Origin: Escherichia coli
Lineage (GTDB): Bacteria > Pseudomonadota > Gammaproteobacteria > Enterobacterales > Enterobacteriaceae
Length of the DNA stretch: 64,000 nt
Assembly: GCF_030384885.1 (NCBI RefSeq)
Contig: NZ_CP128613.1
Strand: one strand, 5' to 3'
In this document: piece after piece, positions 59,224-59,646 of the stretch
Position numbering within the stretch: position 1 is the first letter of the stretch
How the letters are laid out: each line of letters starts with the position of its first letter
Program-made: the position numbers and the translations under genes
Notes under the pieces: model-generated
What the model was told of the DNA's origin: nothing
The model's database searches: none
The model's input: the letters and a program-made list of their open reading frames with translations, nothing else

Positions 59224-59646
59224 TTACCAGTAATATGAGTTTCTTCTGTGCCACCAATAAAGAAGTCCGTATCCAATGATAAGAATTCCGAAAAACATCA
59301 ACGACATTCCCCAGCCAGTTCCGTACCACGAAACCATATCATCGAAAACTAACCCACCCATTTCACGAACTCCGGCTGCTTCCTTAAGAATTGGTTTGAA
59401 TACCGGAATCAGAAGGGCGATCGCAAGTGGAGCACCCCAGCGAACAAGACCAGTTTCCATTTTGATCCCGAAAAAGATCCCCGCACCGACAACAAGCAAC
59501 CAGACTATCAGGCCAGGCGCAGTTTCTAGTGCTGTTTGCCATTCAACATCGAAAGTTTTCATTAGCCAGGCAACAACTGCCAGACAGAAAGCAAATACGC
59601 CTACAACAACCAGTTCAACGCCGCTTGTTTCGTTATTTCTACTCAT
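59224..59646 (-). CDS. Prophage cargo small inner-membrane protein (about 140 aa, 4 predicted TM helices)
   Basis: Start chosen at internal ATG (MSRNNETSG...) with AAAGGATCAAAAGG RBS; the longer 189-aa reading would overlap the upstream gene; four hydrophobic segments. Confidence 0.5.
   Translation of the reverse strand: MSRNNETSGVELVVVGVFAFCLAVVAWLMKTFDVEWQTALETAPGLIVWLLVVGAGIFFGIKMETGLVRWGAPLAIALLIPVFKPILKEAAGVREMGGLVFDDMVSWYGTGWGMSLMFFGILIIGYGLLYWWHRRNSYYW

Follow-up and report, generated by a model that had tools for sequence, protein, structure and literature searches.

A widespread optional membrane protein gene, possibly encoding a membrane-level protection factor, in a filamentous prophage of Escherichia coli

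Introduction

A 64,000-nucleotide stretch of Escherichia coli DNA (RefSeq assembly GCF_030384885.1, contig NZ_CP128613.1), hereafter the window, contains a CUS-1/Ypfphi-like filamentous phage (inovirus) prophage that is integrated at dif beside hipA. One of its genes, at positions 59224-59646, encodes a small putative inner-membrane protein with four predicted transmembrane helices, and is referred to here as the four-transmembrane (4TM) gene. The 4TM gene is a real protein-coding gene and not a chance open reading frame (ORF). It is optional and dispensable for the phage; it does not belong to the morphogenesis, replication or integration genes, is independent of the STM4504/CBY_0614-family gene (hereafter the STM4504 gene) downstream of it, and does not form a toxin-antitoxin pair with the regulator gene upstream. 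In dif-integrating, CTXphi-style filamentous prophages of Enterobacterales related to CUS-1, the 4TM gene is the frequent optional head of an accessory segment whose genuinely variable part, the cargo, comes after it. As to function, the reading tentatively favored here is a stand-alone membrane-level exclusion or protection factor that is expressed in the lysogen, to which a probability of about 0.35 is assigned.

CUS-1/Ypfphi-type prophages occur at dif in extraintestinal pathogenic E. coli, as in UTI89, NU14, F11 and NC101. The ORFs lying close to attL in CUS-1 and Ypfphi have been listed with "unknown function" since their first description (PMC4266046). In the present analysis, this segment is sorted into three parts, namely a boundary resembling an origin, a membrane gene that is widespread and optional, and a highly variable slot of single-gene defense candidates. 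This division gives a rationale for a possible movement of defense cargo between heteroimmune filamentous phages.

A small membrane protein under purifying selection

The 4TM ORF runs on the minus strand from an ATG at 59646 to a stop codon at 59226-59224 (423 nt, 140 residues), and a Shine-Dalgarno-like AAAGGA/AAAGG stands shortly before the ATG. An identical 423-nt coding sequence is annotated by RefSeq in E. coli NCTC9104 (WP_001618449.1), where its product is named hypothetical protein. Purifying selection on the gene was found to be strong, with a median dN/dS of 0.069 over 169 pairs having dS > 0.1; pairs carry up to approximately 25 replacements alongside synonymous change at saturation. 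Two other ORFs overlapping the gene were set aside as artefacts: a 189-residue version starting from TTG at 59793, since every homologue begins at MSRNN, and a 136-residue antisense ORF.

Hydrophobic segments were located at residues 10-28, 43-61, approximately 65-93 (weaker) and 111-129 in a 19-residue Kyte-Doolittle scan. The AlphaFold2 model, built from a 36-sequence alignment (pLDDT 84, pTM 0.70), contains helices at residues 9-32, 36-63, 67-91 and 111-137, with a kink at conserved prolines in the third; the loop at 92-110 is modeled less confidently. A first-pass annotation of the window had described the product as a small polytopic membrane protein, which agrees with both the four hydrophobic segments and the four modeled helices. 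The family as a whole has a net basic C-terminus and net acidic loops 1 and 3, a charge pattern that favors an N-in/C-in topology with loops 1 and 3 in the periplasm. Among close homologues, the first transmembrane helix (TM1) is the least conserved part of the protein, and the loops together with TM3-TM4 are the most conserved. TM2 and TM4 carry glycine-rich small-xxx-small motifs. No conserved charged residue was found within the helices in the family alignment.

The protein belongs to phrog_4174 (PHROGs v4, "unknown function"), which it matches from end to end (residues 1-140 on profile positions 1-140 of 140, E 1.8e-85) and from which it shows no difference; the family has no characterized member. 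In addition to 49 close homologues, approximately 25 distant ones were collected. The close homologues, with identities of 50-99%, come from E. coli, Klebsiella, Salmonella, Citrobacter, Phytobacter, Pantoea, Lonsdalea, Kosakonia, Pectobacterium, Yersinia enterocolitica and Mixta, and every one of them is named hypothetical. The distant homologues are 120-140 residues long and keep the four-helix layout, and those designated P0052, P0059, P0068 and P0070 also match phrog_4174. They have in common P73, P85 (invariant), Y108 and G125, which fall within motifs of the P-x-L-x-[YH]-x-A-G, W-Y-G and G-Y-G types. An exhaustive comparison of the family profile with 1.84 billion cluster representatives gave 41 matches only, and a protein-database search with a widened profile returned only the name "hypothetical protein". 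Fold searches, among them Foldseek against AFDB50, retrieved uncharacterized relatives in Photorhabdus, Xenorhabdus, Arsenophonus and Aeromonas, weaker uncharacterized relatives in Pseudomonas syringae, Xylella, Burkholderia and Vibrio, and otherwise generic helical bundles. One AFDB relative has been automatically named "Holin", a name that is unsupported.

No Pfam family was matched by the 4TM protein itself at E <= 10, and a scan that included 19 homologues produced nothing but one weak DUF3792 match and one weak PsiE match. The protein was also unmatched in NCBIfam, and PADLOC-DB 2.0 returned 0 families for it and for 4 distant homologues. In tblastn against 50,697 phage records (INPHARED), no match was found in any isolated phage. 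A sequence-profile search of the PDB gave only spurious light-harvesting and PrgK segments, and Foldseek against BFVD gave nothing. The first-pass annotation had held that the protein is not part of the Ff assembly machinery, and this was borne out: a search for homology to a known inovirus morphogenesis protein found none, no morphogenesis family was matched in PHROGs, NCBIfam or Pfam, and gII, gV, gVII, gVIII, gIII, gVI, Zot/gI and the secretin gene are separate genes on the other strand.

Truncated copies of 78-87 residues are frequent in public data. In Rosenbergiella (locus L007, 15072-15332), a second copy of the 4TM gene has decayed, with in-frame stop codons, 5 kb from an intact copy. 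Contigs assigned to metagenome-assembled genomes named Candidatus Nanosynbacter, Ruminococcaceae and Bacteroides (L004, L005 and L009) are 98-99% identical to the E. coli-type prophage of the window, and are most likely mis-binned.

An optional gene at the head of a variable segment

The position of the 4TM gene was compared over approximately 40 related loci, of which 32 from the window, RefSeq, GTDB genomes and IMG/VR could be oriented. In 32/32 oriented loci, the gene lies directly 3' of a regulator gene and stands 5' of variable genes, and throughout the comparison it is the first gene after a conserved hairpin. This first-position layout holds also for the distant homologues P0059 and P0055 in other inoviruses. 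The regulators upstream are of three unrelated kinds: a 60-residue protein (or an 89-residue variant of it), a 148-residue HTH_3/CI-like protein and a 174-residue HTH protein. Downstream, at least 14 unrelated gene clusters were counted in the 32 loci, with further ones in F11, AZ184 and C10, and in L029 and L030 attP follows directly after the 4TM stop codon, with no cargo. The 4TM protein is 87-100% identical beside at least 15 unrelated downstream gene sets, and equally so while gII is 85-100% identical or undetectable by tblastn. Some loci with the 4TM gene have coat and gVI sets that were not found by the window's proteins, and UTI89 has a DUF2523-type gVI. Among 5,426 complete E. coli genomes, the 4TM gene was detected in 127, a related replication initiator (Rep) in 165 and the STM4504 gene in 17.

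The gene is replaced in sibling prophages of F11, FDAARGOS_1257 and Combat2C1 by a module of 46-, 91- and 230-residue ORFs, which was found in 22 genomes. These siblings have the same regulator, Rep and structural proteins, and occur as tandem copies. Two genes of the module are homologous to cargo that elsewhere follows the 4TM gene. The 4TM gene is absent from phage I2-2 and from another E. coli inovirus. Ypfphi makes infectious virions. At the 4TM position it carries the unrelated ORFs YPO2271-72 (PMC4266046). Both CUS-1 and Ypfphi resemble the window in having the prophage at dif by hipA and ORFs between an RstR-like regulator and attL. The CUS-1-type prophage of UTI89 has exactly two ORFs at this place, one of 423 nt (97% amino acid identity to the 4TM protein) and one of 1110 nt, and the attL-proximal pair of CUS-1 has been described as orf1/orf1a, without an assigned function (PMC4266046). 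The 4TM gene would correspond to orf1a.

The first-pass annotation had placed the 4TM gene inside a prophage cargo operon, between an RHH-like gene and a HEPN-like gene. The location between a 60-residue gene (59917 to 59735) and the STM4504 gene (59140 to 58211) is correct. The term "cargo operon" calls for refinement: the 4TM gene is a frequent but optional first gene of the accessory segment, and the variable cargo comes after it. The name RHH-like could not be verified for the 60-residue protein, which has no Pfam match. For the downstream gene, the label HEPN-like is weakly supported: AbiJ_NTD4 and DUF7014 were recognized, and the HEPN match has an E value of 0.62.

The region between the 4TM stop codon and attP is a cargo hotspot in L001-L031, L047, L050, L052 and L053, and its genes are mostly unannotated. 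They include STM4504/AbiJ-like genes, genes for an Argonaute-associated "Helical-REase"-like nuclease and for TIR/Cap12/PycTIR-like proteins, ECs_2282 and CxxCx(11)CxxC zinc-ribbon proteins, and several small membrane-anchored proteins. Nothing specific was found in the literature on a defense hotspot in E. coli filamentous prophages.

The hairpin at the left boundary

Between the regulator gene and the 4TM gene, the window contains a perfect 10-bp inverted repeat (59689-59717; RNA fold z = -3.3). This hairpin is kept in all close loci, with any regulator and any accessory module, and the divergence between segments of the 4TM type and of the alternative type begins directly after it. The smaller hairpin beside it varies: phages with HTH regulators have GTCTCAggaaTGAGAC where the window has GTACCAcgaaTGGTAC, the shape being alike and the stem different. 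By alignment, the intergenic region of phage I2-2 contains a nearly identical counterpart of the 59689-59717 hairpin together with its flank (GAACGTGCAGTGT..GTAATACTGCACGTTTGT; window 59680-59730; L051 2668-2703). Because the same hairpin is found there, it is probably an origin-type cis element, as judged from sequence comparison, and it may also attenuate read-through transcription. A plain terminator was considered and dropped, since in I2-2 no gene lies downstream of the conserved hairpin. An Ff-like nick motif, GTTCTTTAT, occurs after the hairpin, but it does not read on the strand that the virion would be expected to carry, and no nick position is claimed.

CTXphi offers a parallel. In that phage the origin is found downstream of rstR, past its 3' end, and tandem prophages give rise to hybrid virion DNA in which two neighbors are combined. 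The window resembles CTXphi in its regulator divergent from Rep, in an origin-like element past the regulator 3' end and in an attP made of two inverted dif-like sites, and the related prophages likewise form tandem and mixed arrays at dif, with a module breakpoint at the hairpin. In contrast to CTXphi, which has no genes between origin and attP, this interval of the window holds the 4TM gene and cargo. In a CTXphi-like scheme, the hairpin would be the point at which the attP-cargo-4TM part of the downstream prophage is fused to the body of its upstream neighbor. Such joining would account for the free combination of the segment with different regulators and bodies.

At dif, F11 (L050), FDAARGOS_1257 (L048/L049) and Combat2C1 (L052) carry two to six filamentous prophages in a row. 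These mixed arrays contain two regulator types, two body types and two types of accessory segment, in differing pairings. Short hairpin units (CCGTGGGAAACCACGG, GTTCGGGTGTCACAGAACCCCGAAC and CGCTTCGCGG) recur at module junctions on both sides of the 4TM gene: after it in L002, L017, L022, L023 and L026, before it in L007, L008 and L028-L030, and also at window 59194-59223.

What does the 4TM protein do?

The proposal of a stand-alone exclusion or protection factor is built as follows. Upstream of the 4TM gene, a consensus scan located only one leftward promoter-like site (59951-59978, before the regulator gene) and none between the regulator and the 4TM gene. Because the gene has no promoter-like site of its own, it would be transcribed by read-through from the regulator promoter, that is, in the lysogen. 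The protein would insert in the inner membrane so that its two acidic, well-conserved loops face the periplasm, and would act there alone and, since its helices lack a conserved charged residue, by protein-protein contact rather than catalysis. The lysogen would be protected at a membrane step, with entry of an incoming phage or of other foreign DNA being blocked. That the adjoining slot gathers defense-like single genes (REase-like, TIR-like and AbiJ/HEPN-like) is suggestive of a host-side benefit.

Copies outside functional inoviruses bear on the same proposal. The homologue P0052 (L032-L034, 6125-12314) is preceded by two uncharacterized genes, of 108 and 161 residues, and an attP-like remnant. 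It is located just upstream of a type II CBASS (DncV-like NTase, E1/JAB and SAVED), with an insertion sequence (IS) element between them in L034. A P0052 cassette in E. coli was ruled out, as none was found there. Another intact homologue lies near IS elements, and P0070 (L045/L046, 4924-8224) has a T4SS/conjugative-element context with a VirB11-like ATPase, a coupling protein, a lytic transglycosylase and H-NS. Such intact homologues outside functional inoviruses suggest a benefit to the carrier cell or element.

Several observations weigh against the proposal. Homology of the 4TM protein to a known exclusion or defense protein was found neither with PADLOC, Pfam, PDB and BFVD nor by comparison with RexB. 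The truncated and decayed copies mean that host-side selection on the gene is not universal. Most transcripts could end at the hairpin, which is followed by CUUUAUUG. In F11, the prophage carrying the 4TM gene is hipA-proximal to two heteroimmune CUS-1-type prophages. If phages integrate at the distal dif, as CTXphi does, the F11 carrier failed to exclude a related filamentous phage. This array counts only weakly against exclusion of related inoviruses, because recombination can scramble the order of prophages; in FDAARGOS_1257 and Combat2C1, the order is opposite to that in F11.

The main rival, a serious possibility although not a probable one, is a lysogenic-conversion or host-fitness membrane protein unrelated to phage exclusion, acting for example in envelope stress, in immunity to a pore-forming toxin, or as a small transporter or channel. 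The gene is optional and is positioned as a "moron" would be, the small-xxx-small motifs in TM2 and TM4 would suit oligomerization, and the single weak DUF3792 and PsiE matches among family members point the same way. CUS-1 and Ypfphi have been reported to have modest in vivo fitness effects, but the reported effect maps to the gIII-like puvA and not to the 4TM gene (PMC4266046). Further, the helices have no conserved charged or polar residue that would point to transport or a channel, and no GtrA, SMR, LrgA/CidA, holin or colicin-immunity family was matched in Pfam. The prophage also has no lysis genes, no gtr genes lie nearby, and there is no invariant charged helix residue. Specific superinfection exclusion of related filamentous phages, through TolQRA- or pilus-dependent entry, had been suggested in the first-pass annotation and is judged unlikely. 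A predicted inner-membrane protein encoded in a regulator operon, with conserved periplasmic loops and with a sequence constant over several body types, as expected if the target is a host entry component, would fit such a role, and so would the homologue in a conjugative element, the pili of which render cells accessible to phages of this kind. PfsE of Pf is a precedent; it has approximately 30 residues and is encoded among the Pf core genes (PMC8764522). PfsE, P22 SieA, T4 Imm and HK97 gp15 are all small inner-membrane proteins of resident phages, but are functional analogues only; no homology of the 4TM protein to any annotated family was detected in PHROGs, PADLOC, Pfam or BFVD, and none to a known exclusion protein. 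In addition, the 4TM prophage of F11 stands on the older side of its heteroimmune relatives, and self-exclusion would be costly if virions need tandem copies as in the CTXphi scheme. A role in the phage life cycle, either in regulating the lysogenic switch or in anchoring replication or assembly to the membrane, is improbable. The gene is present in 127 of approximately 165 E. coli genomes with a related Rep and adjoins the origin-like hairpin, but siblings whose regulator, Rep and structural genes are identical lack it and nevertheless occur in tandem arrays. It is also missing from I2-2, the other E. coli inovirus and Ypfphi (PMC4266046), and its homologues are present outside inoviruses.

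The remaining two readings pair the 4TM protein with a neighbor, and both appear very improbable. The first-pass annotation had considered it a membrane effector or sensor of a defense module with the HEPN-like gene. Such a pairing would be comparable to RexAB. The two genes are indeed adjacent and on the same strand. Lambda RexB has 144 residues and four transmembrane helices, is encoded downstream of the repressor, and is expressed in the lysogen; the 4TM protein is thus similar to it in size (approximately 140 residues), helix number and regulator-operon place. The two proteins are nevertheless unrelated (hhalign probability 0.07%, E 0.7), and RexB has a RexA partner, whereas the neighbors of the 4TM gene vary or are absent and neither the 4TM protein nor the regulator has a PADLOC match. 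A two-gene system is largely refuted by distribution, with 127 genomes against 17 for the STM4504 gene and at least 15 unrelated neighbors or none. Moreover, several cargo proteins have effector domains of their own (TIR, REase and HEPN-like), some cargo genes have homologues where no 4TM gene is present, and PDC-S32, to which the STM4504 protein shows its weak PADLOC match, is taken here to be a single-gene candidate class. The second of these readings makes the 4TM protein the toxin of an addiction pair with the upstream small DNA-binding protein; a gene for a small putative RHH protein directly 5' of a membrane protein gene recalls some toxin-antitoxin layouts. Against this, three unrelated upstream proteins accompany the same 4TM protein, the place of the upstream gene, divergent from gII, is that of RstR, and a structured, origin-like spacer separates the two genes.

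The proposal of a protection factor can be extended, although this wider form is doubtful. In it, phrog_4174 would be a new family of stand-alone inner-membrane entry-exclusion proteins of filamentous phages and conjugative elements, blocking the import of foreign (single-stranded) DNA. It would head an undescribed defense-cargo slot, running from the origin hairpin to attP, that is reshuffled between heteroimmune phages by CTXphi-style formation of hybrid genomes from tandem arrays. If the 4TM protein does exclude phage or DNA, it represents a new exclusion family; otherwise, it is an ordinary prophage accessory gene product. A small accessory membrane protein of a prophage beside a cargo hotspot is of a familiar kind, and the origin-to-attP slot is more notable than the protein itself.

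Prophage context and neighboring features

The left flank of the prophage in the window consists of an autotransporter gene and hipBA, followed by the dif-like site at 58113. Right of the 4TM region, the prophage encodes gII/X Rep, gV, gVII, gVIII, gIII, a DUF5455 gVI-like protein, Zot/gI and the secretin. The leftward operon comprises, in order, a promoter-like site, the 60-residue regulator candidate, two hairpins, the 4TM gene, the STM4504 gene and attP. The coordinates are collected in Table 1. The prophage is present as a tandem repeat in NCTC9104 and in many other strains.

Table 1. Features of the 4TM region in the window
Feature	Position	Strand	Basis and remarks
attL/attP-type forked hairpin	58113-58205		Right boundary of accessory segment; repeats, locus comparison
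STM4504/CBY_0614-family cargo gene of this copy	58211-59140	minus	AbiJ_NTD4 and DUF7014; weak PADLOC PDC-S32 match
4TM gene	59224-59646	minus	140-residue putative inner-membrane protein, phrog_4174; ORF, translation, profile match, AlphaFold2, dN/dS, charge distribution
Inverted repeat, perfect 10 bp, AACGTGCAGT-N9-ACTGCACGTT	59689-59717		Between regulator and 4TM gene; repeat search
Small hairpin GTACCAcgaaTGGTAC	59719-59734		Directly 3' of regulator stop codon
60-residue regulator candidate, phrog_2503	59735-59917	minus	Divergent from gII
Sigma-70-like promoter ATGATA-16-TATACT	59951-59978	minus	5' of regulator gene; consensus scan only
gII/X-family replication initiator	60087-61139	plus	TIGR01629 E 2e-76, RefSeq start; divergent from leftward operon

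At the right boundary of the accessory segment, the dif-like site at 58113 has retained the XerC arm of the host (GGTGCGCATAA TGTCAACGCG TTATGTTGAAA). A G+C-rich stem at 58146-58177 is followed by an inverted second dif-like site at 58179-58205. This forked-hairpin attP architecture is known from CTXphi. The stop codon of the STM4504 gene is 5 nt from the attP structure, the G+C-rich stem of which can double as terminator of the operon. No exact E. coli dif is found in the window, attL being a hybrid and attR lying past the end of the window; an intact dif is present at the far end of the prophage array in L048 (FDAARGOS_1257). An Rfam scan of 57.9-60.3 kb gave sub-threshold chance matches only.

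Among isolated phages, the nearest Rep to that of the window is gII of I2-2, with 56% amino acid identity. In place of the 60-residue regulator candidate, sibling phages have a 148- or 174-residue HTH (CI/RstR-like) protein, and Ypfphi YPO2273 is an RstR homologue at the regulator position (PMC4266046). In I2-2 (NC_001332, L051), an unannotated homologue of the 60-residue regulator (MKKPVRTTASITTEKKKNLSDTAIRISTSTGVQVTWTD...) was noticed in the "intergenic region", on the minus strand from 2918 to 2700. It is frameshifted, and the rest of the homology runs on in another frame. In L042 (7813-8889), a gene for a TolA-domain protein, probably a host gene, immediately follows an inovirus prophage with a 4TM homologue. 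Of the two tandem prophage copies in AZ184 (L047), one has ISEcp1 inserted in its secretin gene (3210-4472).

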